Shown: positions 2,661 to 13,293, numbered from the stretch's first letter. The stretch is DNA of 13,376 nt from a virus (IMGVR_UViG_3300031760_000017); one strand, 5' to 3'. Translations and numbers: made by a program. Notes: generated from the letters alone by a model not told the origin.

Positions 2661-2677
2661 GAATTACAACTAACTAT

Positions 2678-2706
2678 AAGGGGGATTTATATCCCCCTTA
2701 TTTTTA
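2678..2706 (+). terminator. Rho-independent terminator
   Basis: 9-bp stem AAGGGGGAT / ATCCCCCTT with loop TTAT, followed by ATTTTTA. Confidence 0.8.
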
Positions 2707-2721
2707 TCTAAGGAGATTTAT

Positions 2722-3477
2722 ATGTTTTGTTTAAATTATTATCCACATGAAAAATATCTTAATGATGCGGATTAGTTAAAAATCAAATATCGTCCTGCAG
2801 ACCGCACATTAGAAGATTTTTTAAAAACTTATCAAAATATTTCAATAATTATAGACGTATCTGAGGCTTTTGAAGAAACTGATGCCGAATTATTAAAAGC
2901 ATTGTATGATAAATATTCTAATTTTAAAATAATCTTTGATTTTAATAATAAAGAACATTTATCAAGAGCAGAAAAATATCAAATTCCGCATTTCTTCTTG
3001 AACCCAGTTACAAGTTTTGATCAACTTCATGGATTAATTCAATATCATCCAACAGATATGTATATTTGTGAAGAAATGGGGTTCTATATCTTTTGGATTA
3101 GTAAATTATTGCATGAAAATAATATAAAAGTTAGAGTGTTTCCTAATATTTGTCAATCTAGTTTTGCGGAAACTCCTAGTATAAAGACTTTCTTTGTCAG
3201 ACCAGAAGATATATCTATCTATTCAAATTATGTAGATGTGTTTGAATTAGTTTCAGATAAAGATAGACAGAAAGTTTTATTTAAAATTTATAAACAGCAA
3301 AAATGGTTTGGTAAATTACAGGAGGTAATTCCATCATTTAAAGACGATGTTGATAACAGATGTCTTATGAGCGCTTTTGGAAACCTTCGGACTAGATGTA
3401 AAAAACGATGTATGTATAATCCTAATGGGTGTAAGACTTGTGATCGTTTTGTTGAATTAGCAAACTCTTTAAAGTAG
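2722..3477 (+). CDS. Hypothetical protein (about 251 aa if read through) with an in-frame TAG at codon 18 (2773-2775) and a C-terminal Cys-rich segment (RCKKRCMYNPNGCKTCDRF)
   Basis: ATG at 2722 has a very good SD (TAAGGAGA, 6-nt spacer). The frame stays open for 251 codons apart from the single TAG at 2773-2775. The six-frame track instead starts this ORF at an internal TTG (2902), which has no SD and no upstream ATG. The gene itself ends in TAG (3475-3477); read-through there would add 13 codons up to a TGA at 3514-3516. Confidence 0.5.
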
Positions 3478-3512
3478 AATAGAATCATCGTTAAACGAGC
3501 TGAAAAGAAAAG

Positions 3513-3541
3513 TTGACATTTTTAATAATTTTTGATATAAT
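3513..3541 (+). promoter_or_regulatory. Promoter P3 (perfect consensus -35 TTGACA, 17 bp, TGaTATAAT)
   Basis: TTGACA at 3513-3518; TATAAT at 3536-3541 with TG at 3533-3534. Drives ORFs 3574 and 3904 and the tRNA-Arg/Ile pair. Confidence 0.75.
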
Positions 3542-4305: not shown

Positions 4306-4377
4306 ATCTCATTAGTTTAATGGACAGAATATAACACTACGAATGTTAAGGTAGGGGTTCGATTCCCTTATGAGATA
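4306..4377 (+). tRNA. tRNA-Arg (anticodon ACG)
   Basis: Cloverleaf folded by eye. Acceptor ATCTCAT/ATGAGAT. Anticodon stem TAACA/TGTTA with loop CTACGAA. T-arm AGGGG-TTCGATT-CCCTT. D-stem has two G-U pairs. No CCA encoded. Confidence 0.75.
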
Positions 4378-4380
4378 TAT

Positions 4381-4452
4381 GGGGCATTAGCTCAGTGGTG
4401 AGAGCGCTGGTCTTATAAACCAGTGATACTGGTTCGACTCCATTATGCCCTA
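4381..4452 (+). tRNA. tRNA-Ile (anticodon UAU, AUA-decoding), an uncommon isoacceptor
   Basis: Acceptor GGGGCAT/ATGCCCT (G1-U72 wobble). D-arm GCTC-AGTGGTGA-GAGC. Anticodon stem CTGGT/ACCAG with loop CTTATAA. T-loop TTCGACT. Confidence 0.8.
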
Positions 4453-4467
4453 TTTAAAAAATCTTTT

Positions 4468-4496
4468 TTGATTTTTTATAAAATTTATTATATAAT
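4468..4496 (+). promoter_or_regulatory. Promoter P4 (-35 TTGATT, 17 bp, TATAAT) upstream of the sigma factor gene
   Basis: TTGATT at 4468-4473; TATAAT at 4491-4496. No TG extension in this copy. Confidence 0.65.
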
Positions 4497-4537
4497 ATAT
4501 ATACAGTAAAGATAGAAAAAACAAAAAGGAGTTTACT

Positions 4538-5389
4538 ATGGCAGAAATTAAAGCATCTGAAGCAACCACTGTTAATTCTATTAAAGTTTATCTCAATGAA
4601 ATTAGTCAGTATAATCTTCTTTCAAAAGAAGATGAAGTAAGATATGCGAAAGCTGCAGCAAATGGAAGTCAGGAAGCAAAGAATGCTCTGATTAACCACA
4701 ATCTCCGTCTTGTTGTTTCTATTGCTAAAAAGTATATGGGAAGAGGGCTTACTCTTTCTGACCTTATTCAGGAAGGTAATTTTGGTCTGATAAAGGCAAC
4801 AGAAAAGTATGATGTTGATAAGGGATTTAGATTTTCTACTTATGCAACCTATTGGATTAAGCAGTCTATTTCCCGTGCGGTTATGGACCAGACTAGAAAT
4901 ATCCGTATCCCTATTCATGTTATTGAGCTGATTAGTAAGATTAAGAAAGCTGAAAGAGATTTTCAGCAGTCTTATAACAGAGAGCCGAAAGAAGTGGATA
5001 TTGCGGCAGTTCTTGGAATTGATGTCAAGAAAATTAAAGAAGCGTATTCTTGGATGAAAGATACTTCTTCTCTTGATGTAGTCGTGGGAGATGATGAGGA
5101 TACCACTGTTGGTTCTTTTATTGAAGATGAGTCTGTTGCGGATTCTTTTATGAATATTGAGGATGATGAAAGAAAAGAAGCAGTTCAGAATATTCTTAAT
5201 ACCTTGAATGACCGTGAACAGCTTATTATTAAAAATAGATTTGGTATTGGCATGAATAGAGCAAAAACACTTGATGAAATTGGTAAGGAACTTGGTATTA
5301 GTAGAGAACGAGTTCGTCAGATTGAAGCGGCTGCTCTTAAGAAGCTCCGCAATCCGCGAAGAGCTGCTCTGCTAAAGGAATTTTTCTAA
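4538..5389 (+). CDS. Sigma-70 family RNA polymerase sigma factor (RpoD-like, regions 2-4 present, no region 1.1)
   Basis: Region 2 motifs are seen in the translation (LIQEGNFGLIKATEKYD..GFRFSTYATYWIKQSISRAV), with the RpoD-box-like YATYWIKQ. The region-4 helix-turn-helix is TLDEIGKELGISRERVRQIEAAALKKLRNP. Length is 283 aa. Promoter copy P4 and RBS AAAAAGGAG lie upstream. Confidence 0.85.
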   Translation: MAEIKASEATTVNSIKVYLNEISQYNLLSKEDEVRYAKAAANGSQEAKNALINHNLRLVVSIAKKYMGRGLTLSDLIQEGNFGLIKATEKYDVDKGFRFSTYATYWIKQSISRAVMDQTRNIRIPIHVIELISKIKKAERDFQQSYNREPKEVDIAAVLGIDVKKIKEAYSWMKDTSSLDVVVGDDEDTTVGSFIEDESVADSFMNIEDDERKEAVQNILNTLNDREQLIIKNRFGIGMNRAKTLDEIGKELGISRERVRQIEAAALKKLRNPRRAALLKEFF

Positions 5390-5459
5390 AATTTCTTGGG
5401 CGGGCTTGATTAAAGAATTTCTAAGAATTTTTATTAACATTAGATTCTTAAAAGATTTA

Positions 5460-5488
5460 TTGATTTTTTAAAAAATATATTATATAAT
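5460..5488 (+). promoter_or_regulatory. Promoter P5 (-35 TTGATT, 17 bp, TATAAT)
   Basis: TTGATT at 5460-5465; TATAAT at 5483-5488. Drives small ORF 5519. Confidence 0.65.
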
Positions 5489-5518
5489 ATATATGTAAGG
5501 TTAAGAAAGGATTATTAA

Positions 5519-5695
5519 ATGACAGTTAGAGAATTGTTAGAGGAAATTATTGAAGCAGCGCCTAATAGATTGGATTCAGAAATTTATTTTGAGACACCAA
5601 TGAATGATTATTCAGTTCAATGTTATGTGCTTGATGATATAACGAGTTATGGTAATAATGATGGTCTTTTCTTTGTACTTAAAGAAAATATTTGA
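5519..5695 (+). CDS. Small hypothetical protein (58 aa) not in the ORF track
   Basis: Promoter copy P5 lies upstream with RBS AAGAAAGGATTATTAA then ATG. Translation is MTVRELLEEIIEAAPNRLDSEIYFETPMNDYSVQCYVLDDITSYGNNDGLFFVLKENI. The TGA stop overlaps the -35 of promoter P6. Confidence 0.45.
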   Translation: MTVRELLEEIIEAAPNRLDSEIYFETPMNDYSVQCYVLDDITSYGNNDGLFFVLKENI

Positions 5696-5720
5696 TTTTT
5701 AAAAAAATATATGATATAAT
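5692..5720 (+). promoter_or_regulatory. Promoter P6 (-35 TTGATT, 17 bp, TGaTATAAT) heading a tRNA operon
   Basis: TTGATT at 5692-5697 overlaps the TGA stop of ORF 5519. TATAAT at 5715-5720 with TG at 5712-5713. A roughly 180-nt ORF-free leader runs to tRNA-Asn. Confidence 0.65.
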
Positions 5721-5900
5721 ATATATATAATAAAGATAGTAGAACAGCAATTTAAGAAAATCTTGATGATATAATTTTAAAAAAATTGAAATTCACTGGA
5801 AAACTAATAAAGAACTAAAGTTTTTTGTGGCTCATATTTTTTTGATAAAGTTGCCTACCTATAAAAGGAATTTAGAAAAAGAGCTTACTATCTTGTTTAA

Positions 5901-5973
5901 GGCTCCTTAGCTCAGTTGGCAGAGCAGCTGGCTGTTAACCAGCGTGTCGAAGGTTCGAGTCCTCCAGGAGCCG
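5901..5973 (+). tRNA. tRNA-Asn (anticodon GUU)
   Basis: Acceptor GGCTCCT/AGGAGCC. D-arm GCTC-AGTTGGCA-GAGC. Anticodon stem GCTGG/CCAGC with loop CTGTTAA. T-arm GAAGG-TTCGAGT-CCTCC. Confidence 0.85.
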
Positions 5974-6429
5974 CGCCGGCTTCACGCCGATATAGTGAGG
6001 TGTTCTTCCTACCAAAAAGGAATAGTGTAAAAGAACGGTTCATAAAAGAAGGTAAGTCCCAAAGGGCACAGAAATTATGAAAAGTACGTACACGTTTGCA
6101 TTTGAGATACGCGGCTCAAATGATGCACGCCCGCGGTATGGGACAGGTCAGATTCTAGTAAGTGAGCTAGAATTGTGGGTTCAAGCCCCACTGCTGCACT
6201 TAGAGTTGATTTACCTCTTGCCAATGTAAATCTAAGCTGTTGAGGATACAGCCGCGAGCGCCATCGGGGGAGTAAAGGACGAGTGGTCAGGCATTCTTGG
6301 TGCCTGGTAAAAGTCAAGTATCTTTGAAAGGTTATAAAGGTGAAACCTTTCTCGCATCTCAGATAGTGAGAGTAAGGTATAGTAGATACCTGAGCAGGGC
6401 TGAAAGGGTGGCACCTATCTACTAAATAT
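5974..6429 (+). ncRNA. Candidate structured non-coding RNA or spacer (about 455 nt) between tRNA-Asn and the UAG-anticodon tRNA
   Basis: No ORF with an RBS on either strand. GC is clearly higher than in coding DNA. Several local helices, including a perfect T-arm-like hairpin GTGGG-TTCAAGC-CCCAC at 6175-6191 that lacks the rest of a cloverleaf. Co-transcribed from P6. Confidence 0.35.
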
Positions 6430-6504
6430 GCTCCAGTAGCCCAATTGGCATGAGGCGTCTGACTTAGGATCAGAATCGTGTGGGTTCGAGTCCCTCCTGG
6501 AGTA
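6430..6504 (+). tRNA. Class-I tRNA with anticodon UAG (a Leu CUA/CUG-reading anticodon on a short-variable-arm body); identity uncertain
   Basis: Acceptor GCTCCAG/CTGGAGT (G1-U72). D-loop CAATTGGCA. Anticodon stem TCTGA/TCAGA with loop CTTAGGA. 5-nt variable loop ATCGT. T-arm GTGGG-TTCGAGT-CCCTC. Discriminator A. The body closely resembles tRNA-Thr at 9054. Confidence 0.6.
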
Positions 6505-6536
6505 TTTAATATTTATAAATATGGAGAATAAAATTT

Positions 6537-6719
6537 ATGAAAACTGTTTATGAATTAACAGAACAAGATATTATAATTATTATAGCGAATCATTTTTCCG
6601 TTCCATTGGATTCTGTTGAACTAGAACATTATAAATCTATGGAAGGGTTCTATACAGATGAGCATTATGTTGACTATGTAAAAGGGAAAGTCACAATAGA
6701 AGGAAAAGCAAATAAGTAA
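6537..6719 (+). CDS. Small hypothetical protein (60 aa) embedded between tRNAs
   Basis: RBS GGAGAATAAAATTT then ATG; TAA stop. Flanked by the UAG-anticodon tRNA and tRNA-Asp. Confidence 0.45.
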   Translation: MKTVYELTEQDIIIIIANHFSVPLDSVELEHYKSMEGFYTDEHYVDYVKGKVTIEGKANK

Positions 6720-6724
6720 TATAT

Positions 6725-6798
6725 GGCTCTGTGGTGCAGAAGAGTAGCACGCGTGCCTGTCACGCACGAGGTCGAGGGTTCGAGTCCCTTCAGAGTCG
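6725..6798 (+). tRNA. tRNA-Asp (anticodon GUC)
   Basis: Acceptor GGCTCTG/CAGAGTC. D-arm GTGC-AGAAGAGTA-GCAC. Anticodon stem CGTGC/GCACG with loop CTGTCAC. T-arm GAGGG-TTCGAGT-CCCTT. Discriminator G. Confidence 0.85.
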
Positions 6799-7224
6799 CT
6801 AGAGGAAATGGCATCGCCTCTCTAAATATAGACTGCAGGGTTCGCCACTCGGATCAGAAAAACGAGCTTGTAGCAAGGCGTAATGACTACACGAGCCATA
6901 AAACGTGCATCCATCTTCGTGTGTGCTTATTATTATAAGTAAGTGTGGAAGAAGTATGAGTGGAAGTCTCATAAAACTAAGTTCCCGAGGCTCAAACTAC
7001 AAATCGGATTTGTCAGATAAGACATTAAAATCGACGTTAACATGGATTAGAGTTAAACTACCACTGGCATGACCAAATATTCAGGCTTTTCAATTCTAAA
7101 CAGCCTGCCTGAAGGCGCATGATATGTGGCTTTGTGGCAAACGTCTAATAAGAAGGCAAAGTAAACTCAGTTATCAGTATTTATCGCGCCTCTTGATAAT
7201 GCGTACCAAGATAAATCTTTTTAT
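6799..7224 (+). ncRNA. Candidate structured non-coding spacer (about 425 nt) after tRNA-Asp
   Basis: ORF-free and GC-richer than coding DNA. Hairpins include ACAAAT-CGG-ATTTGT and CAGGC...GCCTG. Confidence 0.3.
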
Positions 7225-7253
7225 TTGATATTTATAAAAAAATATAATATAAT
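7225..7253 (+). promoter_or_regulatory. Promoter P7 (-35 TTGATA, 17 bp, TATAAT)
   Basis: TTGATA at 7225-7230; TATAAT at 7248-7253 within a TATAATATAATAT run. Drives ORF 7301 and tRNA-Glu. Confidence 0.55.
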
Positions 7254-7300
7254 ATTATTGTAAGTTAAAAAACAATCTTTTTAAGAAAAGGAGAGTAGCT

Positions 7301-7429
7301 ATGCTTTATATTGTATATTACAGAGATGATGACAAAGTAAGACATATGACTTTCGTTAGAACTTATAAAGAAGTTCTTTTTATTCAGGAAAGATTTGATT
7401 TTGTTACAGTAGAATGTTGCGGTAAGTAA
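7301..7429 (+). CDS. Very small hypothetical protein (42 aa) not in the ORF track
   Basis: Promoter copy P7 lies upstream with RBS AAAAGGAGAGTAGCT then ATG; TAA stop 5 nt before tRNA-Glu. Translation is MLYIVYYRDDDKVRHMTFVRTYKEVLFIQERFDFVTVECCGK. Confidence 0.35.
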   Translation: MLYIVYYRDDDKVRHMTFVRTYKEVLFIQERFDFVTVECCGK

Positions 7430-7434
7430 ATAAT

Positions 7435-7507
7435 GCCCCGTTAGGCAAGCGGTTTAAGCCATCGCCCTTTCACGGCGAAGACGGGAGTTCAACTCTCCCA
7501 CGGGGTA
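7435..7507 (+). tRNA. tRNA-Glu (anticodon UUC)
   Basis: Acceptor GCCCCGT/ACGGGGT. Anticodon stem TCGCC/GGCGA with loop CTTTCAC. T-arm GGGAG-TTCAACT-CTCCC. Confidence 0.8.
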
Positions 7508-7676
7508 TTAATCGTTGATAGACAAGTATTAAAAGTCGATAAGAAAATAAAGCCGAATTACATAGGGACATTGAGGAGAGACACCTCATAGAGCGGGGGA
7601 AGATCCATAAGATACTCTAAAAATCATCTATGCAACCCTATACGGATGCGTGTGATTGAAACTGCACACTCAGCGA

Positions 7677-7705
7677 TTGATTTTTATAAAAAATTTTGTT
7701 ATAAT
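7677..7705 (+). promoter_or_regulatory. Promoter P8 (-35 TTGATT, 17 bp, TGtTATAAT)
   Basis: TTGATT at 7677-7682; TATAAT at 7700-7705 with TG at 7697-7698. Drives ORF 7730. Confidence 0.7.
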
Positions 7706-7729
7706 ATTTATATGAGAAAAGGAGAAAAA

Positions 7730-7885
7730 ATGAGAAGAATTAATTATACAGCGACAATATTAGGAACAATATTTGTTGAAGACTGGCGAGATGATGATGA
7801 AATTTCTTCTCTTATTGATGAAGACCTTGAGGATAGAGGAGTTCCTTTTCTAGAAATTAATGAAATTGAATTTGATGAAAATTAA
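7730..7885 (+). CDS. Small acidic protein (51 aa)
   Basis: Promoter copy P8 lies upstream with RBS AAAAGGAGAAAAA then ATG at 7730. The track's longer ORF from 7646 would start inside the promoter, so the 7730 start is preferred. The C-terminal half is Asp/Glu-rich; ends in TAATAA. Confidence 0.5.
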   Translation: MRRINYTATILGTIFVEDWRDDDEISSLIDEDLEDRGVPFLEINEIEFDEN

Positions 7886-8401
7886 TAATAAAGACAGATA
7901 CAGCAAGATATTTTGTAAATAAAAATAATCCAAATTTTTATACTATGAAGATTACCTGTCTTGGGCGAATAAAAAACAAAATATAGCAATGGTGATTAAA
8001 GAAAATAGTGTACATAAAACTTTAAAGAGTCCACCACACTGCGGCGGTCGGTAGGGAGAGACCATAGCAGACTACCTAGTATAGCTGGAGTCATGACCAG
8101 CGGAATTCAGGCTATAGTGTAAAAAGGGAGCCTCGAAATGGACAAAGCTATATTTATATAAATTTGTTGAAACTCTTGGCTATGCATCTACTTGTAAAAA
8201 TAGCGGGATTTATAAATGATAGACTGATTTTATAAATGGATTGAAAGCAAGATACGGTCAACAAGGTGGGACAGGCAGAGAGAGAACATTTACCCACGTT
8301 AATTATAGTGGCGATTAGAGTTGGTTACCTAGGCAAAATGATTTTTATTCAAAAGTATGGTGGTAAGCTTTGTTTCCACGCCGAGTCACTATAATTTCTA
8401 G
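7886..8401 (+). ncRNA. Candidate structured non-coding region (about 515 nt) upstream of the suppressor tRNA
   Basis: ORF-free. Begins with the conserved 17-mer AAAGACAGATACAGCAA also found at the P9 transcript start. Contains several 5-9 bp helices (GGTAG...CTACC, GCTGG...CCAGC). Confidence 0.3.
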
Positions 8402-8475
8402 CGCCCGATAGTGGAGTGGCTTAACACAGCGGTCTCTAAAACCGCGGATCCTGGGTTCGAATCCCAGTCGGGTGA
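8402..8475 (+). tRNA. Suppressor tRNA, anticodon CUA (reads the UAG amber codon); class I, amino-acid identity undetermined
   Basis: Acceptor CGCCCGA/TCGGGTG (one G-U). Anticodon stem GCGGT/ACCGC with loop CTCTAAA, giving U33, C34 U35 A36 and A37. Variable loop GGATC. T-arm CTGGG-TTCGAAT-CCCAG is perfect. Discriminator A. The anticodon arm differs from a Trp(CCA)-type loop CTCCAAA by a single nucleotide. Confidence 0.8.
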
Positions 8476-8571
8476 TAGATATATGAAAGAGAGGTATGGT
8501 CCATTGGACAATTAAGCCCCACAAGTTAGGATAGGAGTTCCCGAACCTTCTATAATAAAATCGGATGCTGC

Positions 8572-8645
8572 AGCGGGTTAGTAGCAGAGGTCAGCTCGTC
8601 TCCCTCATAAGGAGAAGGTCATGGGTTCGAATCCCATACCCGCCA
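8572..8645 (+). tRNA. tRNA-Met (anticodon CAU); could instead be an Ile2(LAU)-type or initiator-like tRNA
   Basis: Anticodon stem TCTCC/GGAGA with loop CTCATAA. T-arm ATGGG-TTCGAAT-CCCAT. Acceptor AGCGGGT/ACCCGCC has an A1-C72 mismatch. There is no run of three G-C pairs in the anticodon stem. Confidence 0.6.
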
Positions 8646-9053
8646 TCACGGATGCACTTTCGTGTAAGAAAAATGGTGCAACCTACATCTGGGTTAAACG
8701 AGGGTGTGCTTTTGGAGAATTTCTATAGAGAAAAATTCTCCCTACTAATCAGGGTAATGATTAGCCAGCGGTTTGGTAAACACGCAGCCCCAGCCAAAGG
8801 GTAGTTAAAATAAGAGGTGGTTTGATGCAAGCCTAAGCATCCAAGACGAGTGATCATAGTCTTGCTAAATGCGGGATCCACGATACCAAATAGTGTAAAG
8901 ACGTAGCATACCGAGCTTTAACTCGGAGATTCAAAGTAACGCAATGATTTGGTGGGCGTGCAGCCGCAATCCTTTATAATCTGAGCAAGTAGTTAAGACG
9001 AAAATGCTCAGTTGTAATATAGACTGCGGTTTATAGAGAATATAAGCCGCTTT
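8646..9053 (+). ncRNA. Candidate structured non-coding spacer (about 408 nt) between tRNA-Met and tRNA-Thr
   Basis: ORF-free apart from antisense shadow ORFs. Perfect 9-bp hairpin GGAGAATTT-CTATAGAGAA-AAATTCTCC at 8713-8740, plus TAATCA-GGGTAA-TGATTA and CCGAG-CTTTAA-CTCGG. Confidence 0.3.
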
Positions 9054-9126
9054 GCCTTTCTGGCGCAATTGGCAGCGCATCTGATTTGTAATCAGACGGT
9101 TAAGGGTTCGAGTCCCTTGGGAGGCT
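9054..9126 (+). tRNA. tRNA-Thr (anticodon UGU)
   Basis: Acceptor GCCTTTC/GGGAGGC (two G-U). D-arm GCGC-AATTGGCA-GCGC. Anticodon stem TCTGA/TCAGA with loop TTTGTAA. T-arm AAGGG-TTCGAGT-CCCTT. Confidence 0.8.
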
Positions 9127-9154
9127 CTACACGATAGCAAATAAGTGTATAAAC

Positions 9155-9338
9155 GGATGTGCGGTTAGCTGACCTTAAAGTGAAGTATGCCCTATTCCGA
9201 GGAGGCGATTTCGGGAGTAGTTATTTTGGTTAGTTGACGAAACTGTAAAACTACGAAATATCGGATGACCAAAAAGCTTCCTCCAGAGAACAAATGTCGG
9301 GAGGTTAAACGTGGATGGGTGGTTGGCTGACCTTAAAG
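9155..9338 (+). repeat. Imperfect 26-nt direct repeat (23/26): GGATGTGCGGTTAGCTGACCTTAAAG at 9155-9180 and GGATGGGTGGTTGGCTGACCTTAAAG at 9313-9338
   Basis: Seen by eye. The second copy lies immediately 5' of the CAA-anticodon tRNA at 9344. The first is followed by degenerate, non-folding sequence. Confidence 0.5.
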
Positions 9339-9343
9339 CTTAT

Positions 9344-9417
9344 GCGGAGATGACGCAATTGGCAGACGTGACAACCTCAAAAGTTGTATAGTTAGAGTTC
9401 GAATCTCTTTCTCCGTA
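9344..9417 (+). tRNA. Class-I tRNA with anticodon CAA (a Leu UUG-reading anticodon on a short-variable-arm body); identity uncertain
   Basis: Acceptor GCGGAGA/TCTCCGT (G1-U72). D-loop CAATTGGCAGA. Anticodon stem ACAAC/GTTGT with loop CTCAAAA. 5-nt variable loop. T-arm AGAG-TTCGAAT-CTCT. Discriminator A. Confidence 0.6.
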
Positions 9418-9421
9418 TTAT

Positions 9422-9496
9422 GTAGGGATGATGCAGACGTGGGAAACATGATAATTTAGAAAATTATTTATGAAGGTTCGAGCCCTTCACCCTACT
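9422..9496 (+). pseudogene. tRNA-like element, probable pseudo-tRNA (anticodon loop reads AGA on an all-A/U stem; acceptor has an A-A mismatch)
   Basis: Acceptor GTAGGGA/ACCCTAC with 6 of 7 positions paired. Anticodon stem ATAAT/ATTAT with loop TTAGAAA. T-arm GAAGG-TTCGAGC-CCTTC is perfect. The element abuts the -35 of promoter P9. Confidence 0.35.
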
Positions 9497-9497
9497 T

Positions 9498-9526
9498 TTG
9501 ATTTTTTATAAAAATTATAATATAAT
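9498..9526 (+). promoter_or_regulatory. Promoter P9 (-35 TTGATT, 17 bp, TATAAT)
   Basis: TTGATT at 9498-9503; TATAAT at 9521-9526. The transcript begins with the conserved AAAGACAGATACAGCAA motif and runs into the tRNA-like fragment and tRNA-Leu(UAA). Confidence 0.65.
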
Positions 9527-9579
9527 ATATATGTAAGATAAAAAGACAGATACAGCAAACTTTCTTTCAAGAATATTAA

Positions 9580-9633
9580 GTGATATGGTTCACAAATTGT
9601 CTGTAAAACAATGTTAGCTGGTTCGAGTCCAGT
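9580..9633 (+). pseudogene. Truncated tRNA-like fragment with a Tyr-type anticodon arm (GUA); no pairable acceptor stem found
   Basis: D-arm GTGA-TATGGT-TCAC. Anticodon stem ATTGT/ACAAT with loop CTGTAAA. T-arm GCTGG-TTCGAGT-CCAGT. The flanking 7-mers (GAATATT / ATAAAAG) do not pair. Lies about 40 nt downstream of the P9 transcription start. Confidence 0.3.
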
Positions 9634-9788
9634 ATAAAAGGTATAATTGAGCTGTCTTGATTAAAAAATAGCGCCGATGAAGGTCGGTTTGGGAATTAAC
9701 CCAAATAAGATGCAAAACAGGCGGGGGTCGCGCCCCTACAAAACTTCAGATATAGGCGAGGGACTGACTGAAGGGAAGCTATTTATTA

Positions 9789-9871
9789 GCGGGTATGGCG
9801 GAATGGCAGACGCATGGGACTTAAAATCCCTGGGGCGCAAGCTCGTGCGAGTTCAAGTCTCGCTACCCGCA
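9789..9871 (+). tRNA. tRNA-Leu (anticodon UAA), canonical class II
   Basis: Acceptor GCGGGTA/TACCCGC is perfect. Anticodon loop CTTAAAA. 15-nt variable arm GGGGCGCAAGCTCGT. T-arm GCGAG-TTCAAGT-CTCGC. Discriminator A. Confidence 0.85.
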
Positions 9872-10043
9872 TTGCACATTTTTATAAAAATGCCCATTCT
9901 ACATAAAGAGCTTGTAGACGATGGTTTGGCATCGTAAAAATCTAGTTGGAACTGTTACGGTGGCAGGATAAAATAGCCGTAGGTGGCTAGACACTTATAA
10001 CCAAACAATATAATCTTTTGAACGAAAACTGGAGAAGTTTTCA

Positions 10044-10078
10044 GGGGATTCAGATGCCCGCATCAATCCCTGTTTTTA
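10044..10078 (+). terminator. Probable rho-independent terminator
   Basis: Stem GGGGATT / AATCCCT with a 14-nt loop, followed by GTTTTTA. Confidence 0.5.
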
Positions 10079-10209
10079 CTTACGAGTCTTTCTGGATGCT
10101 GCAGAAGAAAGAAAGACAATATTAAGTTGCTTGGTGTGTGCCGTTGAACACACTGATAATAAAAGATTTAATTTCAAAGATTTAGAATGAAATTGAAAGG
10201 AGAATTATT

Positions 10210-10506
10210 ATGCAGATTTTGTATAAAAGTGATGTAACAGGAAAAACTTATAAGTCTGAGGAAGCACTTTTGGAAGCGGAAGCTAAGGTATCAGAAGCTA
10301 AGAAACAGGAAGAGCTTGAAAAGAAAGCAAGAGCAGAAGCTGCTAAGTATGTTCAGGATAAGCTGACTGCCGCATCTACCGCACAGAAGGAAGCTCAGAA
10401 AGCGTTAAGTGAATTTTGTAAGAAATATGGAACATTTAAAACCTCTCTAAAGAGAGATGAAGACCCGTGGAGTTTTTTCGATTTTTTATTTAATCCTTTT
10501 GAGTAA
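10210..10506 (+). CDS. Lys/Ala/Glu-rich small protein (98 aa), hypothetical
   Basis: RBS AAAGGAGAATTATT then ATG; TAA stop followed at once by a clear intrinsic terminator. Charged, coiled-coil-like composition similar to 2262-2660. Confidence 0.6.
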   Translation: MQILYKSDVTGKTYKSEEALLEAEAKVSEAKKQEELEKKARAEAAKYVQDKLTAASTAQKEAQKALSEFCKKYGTFKTSLKRDEDPWSFFDFLFNPFE

Positions 10507-10518
10507 TTTTTTAATTAG

Positions 10519-10550
10519 ATGGAAGGATTAAATATCCTTCCATTTTTTAT
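10519..10550 (+). terminator. Rho-independent terminator after ORF 10210-10506
   Basis: 10-bp stem ATGGAAGGAT / ATCCTTCCAT with loop TAAAT, followed by TTTTTTAT. Confidence 0.8.
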
Positions 10551-10622
10551 TGGTTCTTAGTGTTAGCGGAAGCACGTTGGTCTCCAAAACCAAAAGGACT
10601 GGTTCGAATCCAGTAGTTCCTG
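10551..10622 (+). tRNA. tRNA-Trp-like (anticodon CCA) with a non-pairing acceptor stem; possibly aberrant or pseudo
   Basis: D-arm GTGT-TAGCGGAA-GCAC. Anticodon stem TTGGT/ACCAA with loop CTCCAAA. T-arm ACTGG-TTCGAAT-CCAGT is perfect. The flanking 7-mers TGGTTCT and AGTTCCT are not complementary. Begins right at the T-tract of the upstream terminator. Confidence 0.45.
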
Positions 10623-10800
10623 CTACTATATCTTGAGCGGTTTGGAATCCGCTACTATTAATTTTATTGTTGGTTGGTTAAAATGTAGGTAAACCCATCC
10701 ATAGGGCAAGATATAATTTTAATAAGGTTTTGCAAAACTTATATATTCGTCGATGACGAAAGAAAAATGTTCAATAGCAAATGATTAGGAATGAACAATC

Positions 10801-10873
10801 TGATGGGTAGCTCAATTGGGAGAAGCAACGCCATGTGGCGGCGTGGATAGAGATTCGAATTCTCTCCCATCAA
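10801..10873 (+). tRNA. tRNA-His (anticodon GUG), copy 1; no G-1 encoded
   Basis: Acceptor TGATGGG/CCCATCA is perfect. Anticodon stem ACGCC/GGCGT with loop ATGTGGC. T-arm AGAGA-TTCGAAT-TCTCT. Discriminator A, with C at position -1. Confidence 0.7.
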
Positions 10874-10879
10874 CTATTA

Positions 10880-10965
10880 GGTGCGGATCTGGCTGGATGA
10901 AGACGCGGTCTTGAAAACCGTCGGGCGTGATGAGCGCCTTGGGGGTTCGAGTCCCTCCCGCATCG
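10880..10965 (+). tRNA. tRNA-Ser (anticodon UGA), class II
   Basis: Acceptor GGTGCGG/CCGCATC (one G-U). Anticodon stem GCGGT/ACCGT with loop CTTGAAA. Long variable arm CGGGCGTGATGAGCGCC. T-arm GGGGG-TTCGAGT-CCCTC. Discriminator G. Confidence 0.75.
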
Positions 10966-10979
10966 CTAAGGAGAATAAT

Positions 10980-11291
10980 ATGAGAAAAGATAAAAGATTT
11001 AAAACAGCGAATCCTATTTTATTATATTCAGATATATCGGCACAATATGATTTATTATTAAAAGAATATAACGAATTAGGACATAATTATATTGAAGTAT
11101 CCCAAGATTATATTAAACTTGCTAATTGTTATAAAGAATTAAAAAAAGAAAATACTGAACTTAAAGAAGAAATTTCTGAATGGAAAAAGGTTTCTGAATG
11201 TGATACTCCATTTCAATTAAATCATTTATTAACTGAAATTAATAAAAAGCTTCAAAGATTAAATCAAGAATTAAGAAAATTATTTTGTTAA
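10980..11291 (+). CDS. Hypothetical coiled-coil protein (103 aa)
   Basis: RBS CTAAGGAGAATAAT then ATG at 10980. The track ORF from 10881 overlaps tRNA-Ser(UGA), so the internal start is preferred. Heptad-like LKKENTELKEEISEWKK region; TAA stop. Confidence 0.55.
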   Translation: MRKDKRFKTANPILLYSDISAQYDLLLKEYNELGHNYIEVSQDYIKLANCYKELKKENTELKEEISEWKKVSECDTPFQLNHLLTEINKKLQRLNQELRKLFC

Positions 11292-11384
11292 GGCGGAATG
11301 GCAGAGTCTGGTTTAATGCACCTTCCTGCTAAGAAGGCGACCGCTGTAAAAAGCGGTCCGAAGGTTCAAATCCTTCTTCCGTCG
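11292..11384 (+). tRNA. tRNA-Ser (anticodon GCU), class II
   Basis: Acceptor GGCGGAA/TTCCGTC (one G-U). Anticodon stem CCTTC/GAAGG with loop CTGCTAA. 22-nt variable arm containing the hairpin ACCGCT-GTAAAAA-AGCGGT. T-arm GAAGG-TTCAAAT-CCTTC. Discriminator G. Confidence 0.85.
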
Positions 11385-11390
11385 TTTCAT

Positions 11391-11474
11391 CCCCTATTAA
11401 ACCGTTAAGGAGGCGGGCGGGGCTGTAAACTCCGCATCGGAAGATTCGAGTGGGTTCGATACCCTCATGGGGGA
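11391..11474 (+). tRNA. tRNA-Tyr (anticodon GUA), class II
   Basis: Acceptor CCCCTAT/ATGGGGG (one G-U). Anticodon stem CGGGG/CTCCG with loop CTGTAAA. About 15-nt variable arm. T-arm GTGGG-TTCGATA-CCCTC. Discriminator A. Confidence 0.7.
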
Positions 11475-11539
11475 CTGTGTATACACATTAGATCCTCAGG
11501 TTTGGTAGTTTCAGCGAGCAGAGATGGAAACTACCTATA

Positions 11540-11612
11540 GGCTCGATTAACTCAGCTGGGAGAGTGCGACTCTTACAAAGTCGAAGTCGTTGGTTCAAGT
11601 CCAACATTGAGT
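11540..11612 (+). tRNA. tRNA-Val (anticodon UAC); 3' CCA is genomically encoded (11613-11615)
   Basis: Acceptor GCTCGAT/ATTGAGT (two G-U). D-arm ACTC-AGCTGGGA-GAGT. Anticodon stem CGACT/AGTCG with loop CTTACAA. T-arm GTTGG-TTCAAGT-CCAAC. Discriminator A, then CCA. Confidence 0.8.
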
Positions 11613-11685
11613 ACCATTTGCGGGACCGGCGTATAAAGGGTCCTACCACCCGACTCGTAGTAAACATGGAACGCTGAAAGGTCTT

Positions 11686-11743
11686 GGGGAACTCCAGGGT
11701 AAGATACTCTGCAGGAGAGGTTGTGCTCCCCACTTTATTTTTT
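11686..11743 (+). terminator. Terminator-like GC-clamped hairpin with U-tract at the end of the tRNA-Ser/Tyr/Val operon
   Basis: GGGGA at 11686-11690 pairs with TCCCC at 11727-11731 around an internal CTCC/GGAG helix, followed by ACTTTATTTTTT. Confidence 0.4.
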
Positions 11744-11762
11744 ATAAAAAATATGATATAAT
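11734..11762 (+). promoter_or_regulatory. Promoter P10 (weak -35 TTTATT, 17 bp, extended -10 TGaTATAAT)
   Basis: TTTATT at 11734-11739 lies within the T-tract of the upstream terminator-like hairpin. TATAAT at 11757-11762 with TG at 11754-11755. Drives ORF 11794. Confidence 0.55.
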
Positions 11763-11793
11763 ATATTTATAAAAGATAAGGGAGAAAAATATT

Positions 11794-12018
11794 ATGAAAA
11801 AAGCTATTGCAGATTTTAATAAAGCATATGAAACAGACGATATGTTTCATGAATATTTGGCTTTTAGCCAGTTTTTTCAAAGAGCTTTTATAAGTAAGGG
11901 CGGATATATAATTGATACAGGTAATTTTGAAACTTGCAATAGAGAATTGATAGATTTAGTTGAAGCAAAAATTCATAAACATCCTTTGTTATGGAAATTG
12001 TTTTTTATGGTGGCATAA
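11794..12018 (+). CDS. Hypothetical protein (74 aa)
   Basis: Promoter copy P10 lies upstream with RBS AAGGGAGAAAAATATT then ATG; TAA stop immediately followed by the ATG of the next gene. Confidence 0.55.
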   Translation: MKKAIADFNKAYETDDMFHEYLAFSQFFQRAFISKGGYIIDTGNFETCNRELIDLVEAKIHKHPLLWKLFFMVA

Positions 12019-12513
12019 ATGATACAATTATATACAAGTTATTTTTATCAAATCCGCCACTTTAAAAAGAATATGGTGCCTATTTCGACAGCAATGTGGG
12101 ATCCAAAATGGTATCATGATTGGATGGGTCATGATTATACTTTTAAGGACAAGAGGGGAATATATAATGGTATTCGCGCAGAATGTTTTCATTTTGATGG
12201 AGAAGATCATGGATGCGGCGATCAATGTTTACTCTCACCCAAAGATCCGTCTAAATGTGAATTTTTGCGGCGTCTCCGCCAACAATATAATAAATTAAAT
12301 TTTCAAGATATTATGACTCGATGTGAAAGGTTAGCTTCTTACATTCAGTCTATTGAAAATTTACAAGAATTACCTATTTTAGTTTTTGTTTTTTATGAAA
12401 CTCCTACAAACTTATGTTCAGAAAGAAAAACTTTACAAAATTGGTTTAAAGATAATGGATATGATTTACAAGAATTGAAATATCCAATAAAAGATAATTA
12501 TATTGATATTTAA
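12019..12513 (+). CDS. Hypothetical protein (164 aa) with an HxD/CGD Cys/His cluster
   Basis: ATG directly after the previous TAA, in the same frame. 495-nt ORF ending in TAATAA; the stop overlaps promoter copy P11. Confidence 0.6.
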   Translation: MIQLYTSYFYQIRHFKKNMVPISTAMWDPKWYHDWMGHDYTFKDKRGIYNGIRAECFHFDGEDHGCGDQCLLSPKDPSKCEFLRRLRQQYNKLNFQDIMTRCERLASYIQSIENLQELPILVFVFYETPTNLCSERKTLQNWFKDNGYDLQELKYPIKDNYIDI

Positions 12514-12531
12514 TAAAAATTTTGATATAAT
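12503..12531 (+). promoter_or_regulatory. Promoter P11 (-35 TTGATA, 17 bp, TGaTATAAT)
   Basis: TTGATA at 12503-12508 overlaps the end of ORF 12019-12513. TATAAT at 12526-12531 with TG at 12523-12524. Drives the tRNA-Ile/Pro/His cluster. Confidence 0.65.
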
Positions 12532-12546
12532 ATATAAGTAAGGTAA

Positions 12547-12620
<74 letters not shown>

Positions 12621-12624
12621 TCCT

Positions 12625-12700
12625 CGGGGCGTAGCGAAGTTTGGTTTATCGCGCCTGATTTGGGTTCAGGAGACCGCAGGTTCAAATCCTGTCGCCCCGA
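12625..12700 (+). tRNA. tRNA-Pro (anticodon UGG)
   Basis: Acceptor CGGGGCG/CGCCCCG is perfect. D-arm GCGA-11-nt loop-TCGC. Anticodon stem CCTGA/TCAGG with loop TTTGGGT. T-arm GCAGG-TTCAAAT-CCTGT. Confidence 0.85.
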
Positions 12701-12702
12701 CT

Positions 12703-12775
12703 GTGGATATAGCATAATTGGTAATGCAGCGGATTGTGGATCCGCCGAGTGAGGGTTCAATCCCCTCTATCCACC
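12703..12775 (+). tRNA. tRNA-His (anticodon GUG), copy 2; C73 discriminator but no G-1 encoded
   Basis: Acceptor GTGGATA/TATCCAC is perfect. D-arm GCAT-AATTGGTAA-TGC. Anticodon stem GCGGA/TCCGC with loop TTGTGGA. T-arm GAGGG-TTCAATC-CCCTC. Discriminator C. Confidence 0.75.
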
Positions 12776-12804
12776 TGACTTAATTATAAAAAGGAGAAAA
12801 TAAA

Positions 12805-13209
12805 ATGGGTTATTATGCAATATATGCTTATGAAAATATGTATGGCGGTCTTCATGGAATAAATGATTATGCAGTAGTAGAAGCTGATTCTTATGAAATG
12901 GCAGAGAAATTTGCTGCAGAACTTTCAAGTGATGTTATAGACTCCTATCTTGACGATGAAGAAATTCGTGAAGCTGCGGGGATTGATGAAGATGATGTCT
13001 TTTTTACAGATGAAGATGATAAGCTTGATGATTTTTATGCAGAAGATATTGCATATGACATTTACACTCTGGATGAATCTAAAATTAGAGATGAAATATC
13101 ATTAAATTCTTATGCAGATGAATTTAGAGACGACCCGCATGAATTTATTGAAAAATATAAAGTTAAAGGAGAAGATAAATTTTATGAATTTTATGATAGT
13201 CTCTTTTAA
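12805..13209 (+). CDS. Highly acidic protein (134 aa), candidate DNA-mimic or anti-restriction-like protein
   Basis: RBS AAAAAGGAGAAAATAAA then ATG; TAA stop. The translation is Asp/Glu-rich throughout, with stretches such as DEDDVFFTDEDDKLDDFYAEDIAYD. Confidence 0.6.
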   Translation: MGYYAIYAYENMYGGLHGINDYAVVEADSYEMAEKFAAELSSDVIDSYLDDEEIREAAGIDEDDVFFTDEDDKLDDFYAEDIAYDIYTLDESKIRDEISLNSYADEFRDDPHEFIEKYKVKGEDKFYEFYDSLF

Positions 13210-13220
13210 CTATCTAATTA

Positions 13221-13293
<73 letters not shown>

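Follow-up and report, generated by a model that had tools for sequence, protein, structure and literature searches.

The 13,376-nucleotide stretch of viral DNA analysed here (IMGVR_UViG_3300031760_000017; hereafter the window) very probably belongs to an uncultivated gut or rumen phage of ~140 kb in which the amber codon has been reassigned. Comparative sequence evidence shows that its gene at 2722-3516 comprises 264 codons and that the UAGs within it are decoded by the phage's own tRNA(CUA), likely as glutamate; a UAG close to the start codon may act as a gate on translation. Amber reassignment by means of a phage-borne suppressor is an already known phenomenon; what our comparisons suggest beyond it is evidence for glutamate as the meaning of TAG, and the conservation of an early TAG. 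We lean modestly towards the view that these two elements together define a phage code with UAG as glutamate that is undescribed for any virus or bacterium, combined with an always present, positionally flexible UAG gate within the first 18 codons, in a clade of ~125-145 kb that probably infects Bacillota.

Translation of the frame opening at ATG 2722 gave a TAG at codon 18, a second TAG at codon 252 and a TGA at codon 265. The following features were assigned to the gene:

2710..2715, plus strand: Shine-Dalgarno sequence AAGGAG, 6 nt before the ATG, with similar GGAG motifs ahead of the homologue genes
2722..3516, plus strand: predicted coding sequence of 264 codons plus TGA stop, for a TIM-barrel-like protein
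2773..2775, plus strand: in-frame TAG at codon 18, read as sense and most likely as Glu; this lineage's member of the conserved set of early TAGs
3475..3477, plus strand: in-frame TAG at codon 252, read as sense and non-terminating, the homologues being 264 aa long with a conserved tail
3514..3516, plus strand: TGA, the true stop according to the translation and the homologue genes

The ribosome binding site lies in TAAGGAGA (2709-2716), which contains AAGGAG at 2710-2715, and the ATG at 2722-2724 follows six bases further. A preliminary description of this DNA had proposed a well-spaced binding site before ATG 2722 and an in-frame TAG at codon 18, and both are present as described. It had also stated that an ORF in the standard code would need a TTG start lacking a Shine-Dalgarno sequence; the list of standard-code ORFs at this place holds solely 2902..3477, starting at TTG and encoding 191 aa. 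Its assignment of the TAG at 3475 as the terminator did not stand: this TAG, too, is sense, which makes the protein 264 aa long instead of 251. Judged from translation and homologues, 2722-3516 is a single gene that runs through two TAG sense codons to its true stop, the TGA.

Among ~5.8 billion proteins searched, 214 homologues were found. Almost all of them have 100% coverage and a length of 264 aa, exactly what is obtained by reading both TAGs through to the TGA. Invariant residues occur inside the first 60 codons (F2, C3, P8, Y12, I21, Y23, D27, L30 and F33, among others). The preliminary description had judged the open frame upstream of the TTG improbable by chance, and the homologues together with these residues place it far beyond chance. 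It had further suggested that homologues be aligned over codon 18: the alignments run across this position, and the residue found there is glutamate in all 24 distinct homologues without a TAG (GAA 23, GAG 1). The opposite pattern, homologues starting at the TTG and 60 unconserved upstream codons, was not seen, since the N-terminal 60 residues are conserved. Likewise, the 12-residue tail past codon 252 is conserved (consensus N-K-I-V-x-x-x-K-K), and the residues aligned at codon 252 itself are E (13), K (5), T (5), N (3), D (2) and Q (1). TAGs in the homologue genes occur at codons 18 and 252 and at others, for example 36, 38, 87 and 101, so that the database proteins cannot be translated from their own DNA in the standard code.

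For comparison within the clade we used a set of 34 IMG/VR loci; L numbers below denote loci of this set and of the enlarged one. All 29 genes of the close clade that were examined (26 distinct sequences, 53-97% identity) contain one to seven in-frame TAGs. They end in TGA, or in TAA at a few loci, and none of 37 focal-family genes ends in TAG. The homologue genes of an outgroup branch (L033-L040, ~30% identity) contain no TAG.

An AlphaFold model from the 23 close homologues alone reached a pLDDT of 52. Adding the distant branch raised the quality and gave a confident barrel (pLDDT 92) with the first 60 residues as integral strands and helices. Four invariant C-terminal cysteines (Cys226/230/237/240) constitute a CX3CX6CX2C motif. 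By this model the focal protein is of TIM-barrel-like fold with a C-terminal four-cysteine motif; no family was found for it in searches of Pfam, PHROGs, NCBIfam, PADLOC and PDB sequences.

Among the 16 supported plus-strand genes of the window, 14 stop in TAA, two in TGA (one of them the gene at 2722-3516) and none in TAG. The gene at 2722-3516 is the sole supported gene of the window with in-frame TAGs, and comparing ORF sets under alternative stop assignments revealed no gain across the whole window. One other standard-code ORF has a TAG end, 8559-8804; it is no gene, as tRNA-Met (8572-8645) lies within it. The nearest relative is a 139,781-bp IMG/VR contig to which the window DNA is 94% identical, and ~40 kb of this roughly 140-kb genome were read. 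Walking upstream led to genes of DNA-metabolism type with few TAGs. The downstream walk led into a recoded tail module: just past the tRNA array lie a 942-aa ORF with 18 TAGs and a 670-aa ORF with 10 TAGs, the latter matching a tail-protein PHROG.

TAG density across gene families is bimodal, at 0 versus 0.7-2 per 100 codons. The sigma factor, a DUF2828 protein and several other families are free of TAG; the focal gene belongs to the dense group, together with a 248-aa protein and the proteins of the tail module. TAA is the terminator in 501 of 651 gene copies, and at most 17 of the 651 are compatible with termination at TAG. TAG density and the tail PHROG match point to a recoding biased to late or structural genes, with other modules in the standard code. 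By the evidence of these gene families, amber reassignment is lineage-wide and the TAGs of the focal gene are read through. Of the read-through first proposed for this gene, the sense reading of TAG holds; a leaky process in a single gene gives way to reassignment throughout the lineage, and the 251-aa product to the longer one.

The read-through is further borne out by an amber-suppressor tRNA of the phage itself in the same window, 4.9 kb downstream, which the preliminary description had not included:

8402..8475, plus strand: amber-suppressor tRNA, anticodon CUA, canonical cloverleaf (ARAGORN; Rfam RF00005, 62.8 bits, E 1.6e-13, full length)
4306..13293, plus strand: array of 22 tRNA genes among small ORFs, holding the suppressor (tRNA scan; syntenic arrays in relatives)

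The label 'Pyl' given by ARAGORN to this tRNA reflects its anticodon alone. Identical copies occur in L003, L007 and L028 and homologous copies in syntenic arrays at 21 clade loci, and tRNA(CUA) was not found in the outgroup loci L033-L040.

Several other genes of these arrays are unusual. The tRNA at 10801-10874 of the window has anticodon GTG (His), and its orthologs read GTA (Tyr) in L007 (17928-18001), a relative 94% identical to the window, and TTG (Gln) in L003 (17595-17668); all occupy the same slot before tRNA-Ser(UGA) with a mean identity of 92%, the anticodon having shifted on a conserved body. L025, which also carries a tRNA(CTA), has an ochre-suppressor-like tRNA with anticodon TTA (15980-16054) beside tRNA-Leu(TAA); TAA is nevertheless the main terminator of the clade. 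Syntenic tRNA-like genes with a four-base anticodon 'atca' in an 8-nt loop were called by ARAGORN in L018 (15329-15403), L021 (13780-13854) and L026 (14447-14521), and the array of L030 contains a tmRNA-like gene (16329-16606) with the tag peptide ADNYTYQMAA*. In the window, the gene called tRNA-Ser(AGA) at 9422-9496 is of doubtful identity, as it is 75 nt long and has no long variable arm of the kind expected for bacterial tRNA-Ser.

The amino acid inserted at UAG was examined in an enlarged set of 70 loci (1.17 Mb) with the tail module added, which gave 73 accepted families, 19 of them TAG-rich. Columns were regarded as conserved if otherwise at least 90% one residue. TAG was found in 29 of 102 conserved-Glu columns (28%) as against 5 of 56 conserved-Gln columns (9%), and in at most 3% of those of any other residue. 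In the same families the control codon CAG occurred in none of 102 Glu columns and in 24 of 42 Gln columns (57%), and GAG in 19 of 81 Glu columns and none of 56 Gln columns. The TAG-bearing Glu columns are spread over at least nine families and many genomes, the window's lineage included. We then calculated likelihoods over 318 columns, using substitution probabilities learned from the same families. The empirical log-likelihood per column was -2.571 for E and -3.032 for Q; the bootstrapped difference amounted to 147 log-units (95% CI 109-183), with E winning in 2000 of 2000 resamples. When codon identities were blinded, the inference was right for 18 of 18 control codons, and the procedure still returned E without the two largest families and on the window's lineage alone. 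Based on these comparisons we consider it probable that UAG inserts glutamate and not the glutamine of code 15. No phage code in which amber is read as Glu emerged from a literature search.

Smaller data sets were less clear. The first column analyses, on loci of +/-10 kb, put Gln slightly ahead and then gave a tie of Gln and Glu; well-conserved proteins of these loci contain few TAGs, and some shadow ORFs had entered the set. In the focal family itself, E is found in TAG columns no less often than Q; stored database homologues show Q at TAG by convention alone. Residues opposite TAG in the standard-code outgroup were E in 32%, D in 19% and Q in 3%, figures that derive from raw, pseudo-replicated BLAST pairs and are ambiguous.

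The principal alternative is ordinary genetic code 15, in which the same suppressor would insert glutamine and the excess of Glu would stem from GAG-to-TAG mutation (a tolerated E-to-Q change) or from selection of TAG at tolerant Glu sites. For amber-recoded phages, no reassignment other than glutamine has been reported (PMC9523058; bioRxiv 10.1101/2021.08.26.457843; PMC10607447), and occasional TAG/E alignments in Lak phages have been explained as GAG-to-TAG mutations (PMC8346664). Comparison at the closest range also speaks for it: of 13 events, 9 pair TAG with CAG or CAA, and at 90% identity or above the nearest non-TAG partners are CAG (8), TGG (3) and CAA (1), with GAG at 0. Such partners would suit a synonymous Gln reading and keep it alive. 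Mutation bias can account for them, however, as 11 of the 13 close-range events are transitions, and these recent changes include some to Trp that are radical under either reading. Focal codons 10 and 14 alternate between TAG and CAA, and 6 of 17 TAG-bearing families, all small, weakly favour Gln. Against glutamine stand, apart from the likelihoods and the blinded controls, the conserved columns themselves: CAG, the genuine Gln codon, is missing from the conserved-Glu columns, in which TAG occurs, and abundant in the conserved-Gln columns, where TAG is scarce. For CAG, Lys columns exchange with Gln just as easily as Glu columns, and they display no enrichment of TAG. Glu codons are over-represented in Gln-majority columns that bear TAG (OR 12, p 2e-4), whereas the Gln codons CAA and CAG show no excess in Glu-majority columns that bear TAG.

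The structure of the suppressor bears on the same question. The acceptor stem of the window copy reads C1-G72, G2.U71 and C3-G70, followed by A73, and does not have the tRNA-Gln acceptor set found in the phages' own tRNA-Gln (a weak 1-72 pair, that is U1-A72 or A1-U72, with G2-C71, G3-C70 and G73). We compared 14 suppressor copies, leaving out two divergent ones from L071/L073. Features that also occur in phage tRNA-Glu genes were frequent (D-loop insertion in 12 of 14, A73 in 11, U71 in 10), G73 was present in 0 of 14, and a weak 1-72 pair was never found. The anticodon stem, in contrast, is Gln-like at pairs 30-40 and 31-39, and the Glu/Gln-discriminating cells of the 14 suppressors divide into 46 Glu-like, 54 Gln-like and 26 that are neither. 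Whole-molecule identity to isotype-labelled phage tRNAs was ~0.7 for many isotypes and thus uninformative. In E. coli, amber suppressors are often charged by GlnRS, a CUA anticodon lacks the anticodon determinants known for GluRS, and engineered tRNA-Glu amber suppressors are mostly charged with Gln. Weighing both sides, we regard the code-15 explanation as possible but unlikely; the same holds for glutamine as the meaning of UAG in general, with a mixed or other meaning taking up what is left beside glutamate.

Far less probable is leaky, gene-specific read-through of UAG by near-cognate host tRNAs with the code unchanged. The restriction of in-frame TAGs to one gene of the 13.4-kb window would suit it; the window nevertheless encodes a dedicated tRNA(CUA) that is conserved across the clade, TAG positions change freely from gene to gene and share no conserved context for read-through, and low-efficiency read-through is incompatible with relatives that have up to seven TAGs in the focal gene and 10-18 in tail genes. 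A pseudogene, or TAGs due to sequencing or assembly errors, would fit the fact that each TAG is one step from CAG or GAG, and is practically dismissed: assemblies made independently for several samples (L001, L002, L007) show the same TAGs, and the frame is otherwise unbroken throughout 26 distinct sequences, at identities as low as 53%, along with strongly conserved residues and a confident fold. Hardly any weight attaches to the ORF 2902-3477 as the real gene with a fortuitous frame upstream, the sole ORF offered here by a standard-code scan, as its TTG has no Shine-Dalgarno sequence ahead of it, residues 1-60 hold many invariant positions and make up the initial beta-alpha units of the barrel (pLDDT 92-97), and homologues including those of the standard-code outgroup begin at the equivalent of ATG 2722. 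The structure of tRNA-Pyl is atypical. Pyrrolysine as the meaning of UAG has the CUA anticodon alone in its favour and is scarcely credible for a tRNA that the general model matches from end to end (62.8 bits) and that has a normal D-loop with GG, a variable loop of 5 nt and a T-loop; TAG columns align with Glu and not with Lys, and no pyl genes were noticed in an unsystematic look through ~1.2 Mb of related loci. On the homologues, the tRNA(CUA) and the TAG columns we rejected all four: leaky host read-through, pseudogene or error, the TTG-start ORF and pyrrolysine.

The surroundings of the focal gene contain three further elements:

2676..2701, plus strand: GC-rich hairpin with T-run, terminator-like; 11-pair stem with 5 GC pairs, ending 8 nt before the Shine-Dalgarno sequence
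3513..3541, plus strand: predicted promoter for the downstream genes, perfect sigma-70 consensus TTGACA, 17 nt, TG-TATAAT (12/12 matches)
4538..5389, plus strand: gene for a sigma-70-family factor (Pfam Sigma70_r1_2/r2/r3/r4 on a homologue; 0 TAG in 15-16 members)

A hairpin is found at the same position before the focal gene in every lineage, the standard-code outgroup included, with a dG of -14 to -25 kcal/mol. Its stems differ wholly in sequence between lineages, the changes being compensatory, and the element at 2676-2701 may be a terminator or part of the 5'-UTR. The -35 hexamer of the promoter contains the TGA stop of the focal gene, and the promoter is kept in L001, L003 and L007, which form the window's subclade, in L019 and in most outgroup loci. 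As predicted from these two elements, the focal gene is insulated, with a hairpin upstream and a promoter over its stop. In two 91%-identical relatives, a gene for a GIY-YIG homing endonuclease is located between the focal gene and the next (L001 1870-2685, L002 1896-2696); it is absent from the window.

Related contigs measure 118-144 kb. The INPHARED phage collection contained no match for the region (megablast) or the protein (tblastn), and distant matches only for neighbour proteins. Most MAG bins in which relatives occur belong to Bacillota of the rumen and the rabbit gut (Ruminococcus, Clostridia, Bacilli, Erysipelotrichaceae, Lachnospiraceae), and one is an Endomicrobiaceae bin. The clade probably infects Bacillota, MAG binning being weak evidence of a host.

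At least one TAG at codon 10, 14, 17 or 18 was present in all 26 distinct genes of the clade, which represent 14 lineages at 80% identity. The sets differ between lineages ({18}, {14}, {10}, {10,14}, {10,18}, {10,14,18} and {17,18}): the position of the early TAG turns over, but one is always retained. Of all CAA, CAG and TAG codons taken together, TAG accounts for 65% within codons 1-20 and for 16% in the rest of the gene (Fisher p 2e-11, uncorrected for phylogeny), and conserved neighbour families on either side of the focal gene have ~0 TAG. This pattern suggests that the early TAG is a suppressor-dependent translational gate; a mutational or compositional hotspot at codons 10-18 may alternatively be its source. 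Other families show a weak enrichment of 5'-proximal TAG (OR 1.7, p 0.01), with start codons that are uncertain, and this was not relied on. A conserved 248-aa protein with weak PHROG matches only (L041 10001-10747, corresponding to L007 1364-2110 on the minus strand) has 2-6 in-frame TAGs, the first of which falls within codons 5-20 in 7 of 10 members; it is possibly a second case of an early-TAG gate.

On the comparative evidence, the UAGs of gene 2722-3516 are decoded by the tRNA(CUA) encoded at 8402-8475, and translation ends at UGA 3514-3516. In the mechanism we propose, the suppressor, Glu-like in its G2.U71, A73 and enlarged D-loop and devoid of the tRNA-Gln acceptor identity set, would be charged by the host GluRS. 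By what is established about these enzymes, a non-discriminating GluRS could charge it, and the G1-C72/C1-G72 pair together with the D-loop insertion would exclude GatCAB. If the host reads UAG as stop, sufficient suppressor tRNA would be needed to keep the ribosome from terminating at codon 18 and freeing a peptide of 17 residues. Judging by the pattern of conservation, the early UAG might thereby limit the protein to the phase in which the tRNA array is expressed, and the dense UAGs of the tail genes may do likewise for the tail proteins.

The Gln meaning of UAG in phages is taken for granted everywhere and, as 'table 15', built into gene callers and databases. If UAG is glutamate in this clade, the diversity of phage codes exceeds what has been assumed, and aminoacylation runs via GluRS rather than GlnRS. 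Automated translations of the clade would then be wrong at ~15% of the Glu positions in late genes, and pipelines that read TAG as Gln would mistranslate hundreds of residues per genome. With an early TAG in 14 of 14 lineages, neighbours free of TAG and the suppressor a few kb downstream, the focal gene offers a simple, testable case for the long-standing hypothesis that recoding times protein production.

Among known systems, amber-recoded phages were described by Borges et al. (bioRxiv 10.1101/2021.08.26.457843), who proposed for late genes the same logic of a gate that depends on the code switch, and TAG as Gln has been validated by proteomics in crAss-like phages (PMC9523058). Our clade resembles such code-15 phages (crAss-like, Lak) in the in-frame TAGs of conserved genes of a phage whose host presumably uses the standard code, in the phage tRNA(CUA), in the concentration of recoding in structural, late genes and in the rarity or absence of TAG as terminator. 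It differs in TAG columns that are Glu-like and in a suppressor without the tRNA-Gln acceptor set, and it consists of contigs of 125-145 kb that are binned with Bacillota MAGs and have no close INPHARED relative. Code-switch accessories such as RF2 and aaRS are reported in only some recoded phages (bioRxiv 10.1101/2021.08.26.457843). The phage phAss-1 of the proposed Phassvirus (OQ749652; Babkin et al. 2023, PMC10607447), from gut viromes, has ~136 kb, 36 tRNA genes, tRNA-Sup-CTA genes and TAG in 28% of its ORFs including structural genes. By this description, it is similar in genome size, the many tRNAs, the suppressor and TAG in structural ORFs; its authors infer Gln from a TerL alignment and tRNAscan-SE (PMC10607447), whereas Glu is favoured here. 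In Agate phages, a homing-endonuclease gene recoded from TGA to Trp sits inside a standard-code early gene, which was interpreted as delaying the protein until the code switch (bioRxiv 10.1101/2021.08.26.457843). The two cases share a single stop-recoded gene in an otherwise standard-code region. They differ in that the recoded gene is an intron endonuclease there, whereas the product here is a TIM-barrel-like protein whose gene has an early TAG conserved in position.

Outside phages, UAG is glutamate in the nuclear code of peritrich ciliates (NCBI table 30). That code is eukaryotic and also reads UAA as Glu, whereas TAA is the main terminator in our clade. In the classical amber suppressors, E. 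coli supE/glnV and psu1 of phage T4, a CUA tRNA competes with RF1 at UAG. Those are mutant alleles that partially suppress accidental nonsense codons; the suppressor described here is a conserved gene that would serve hundreds of in-frame TAGs.
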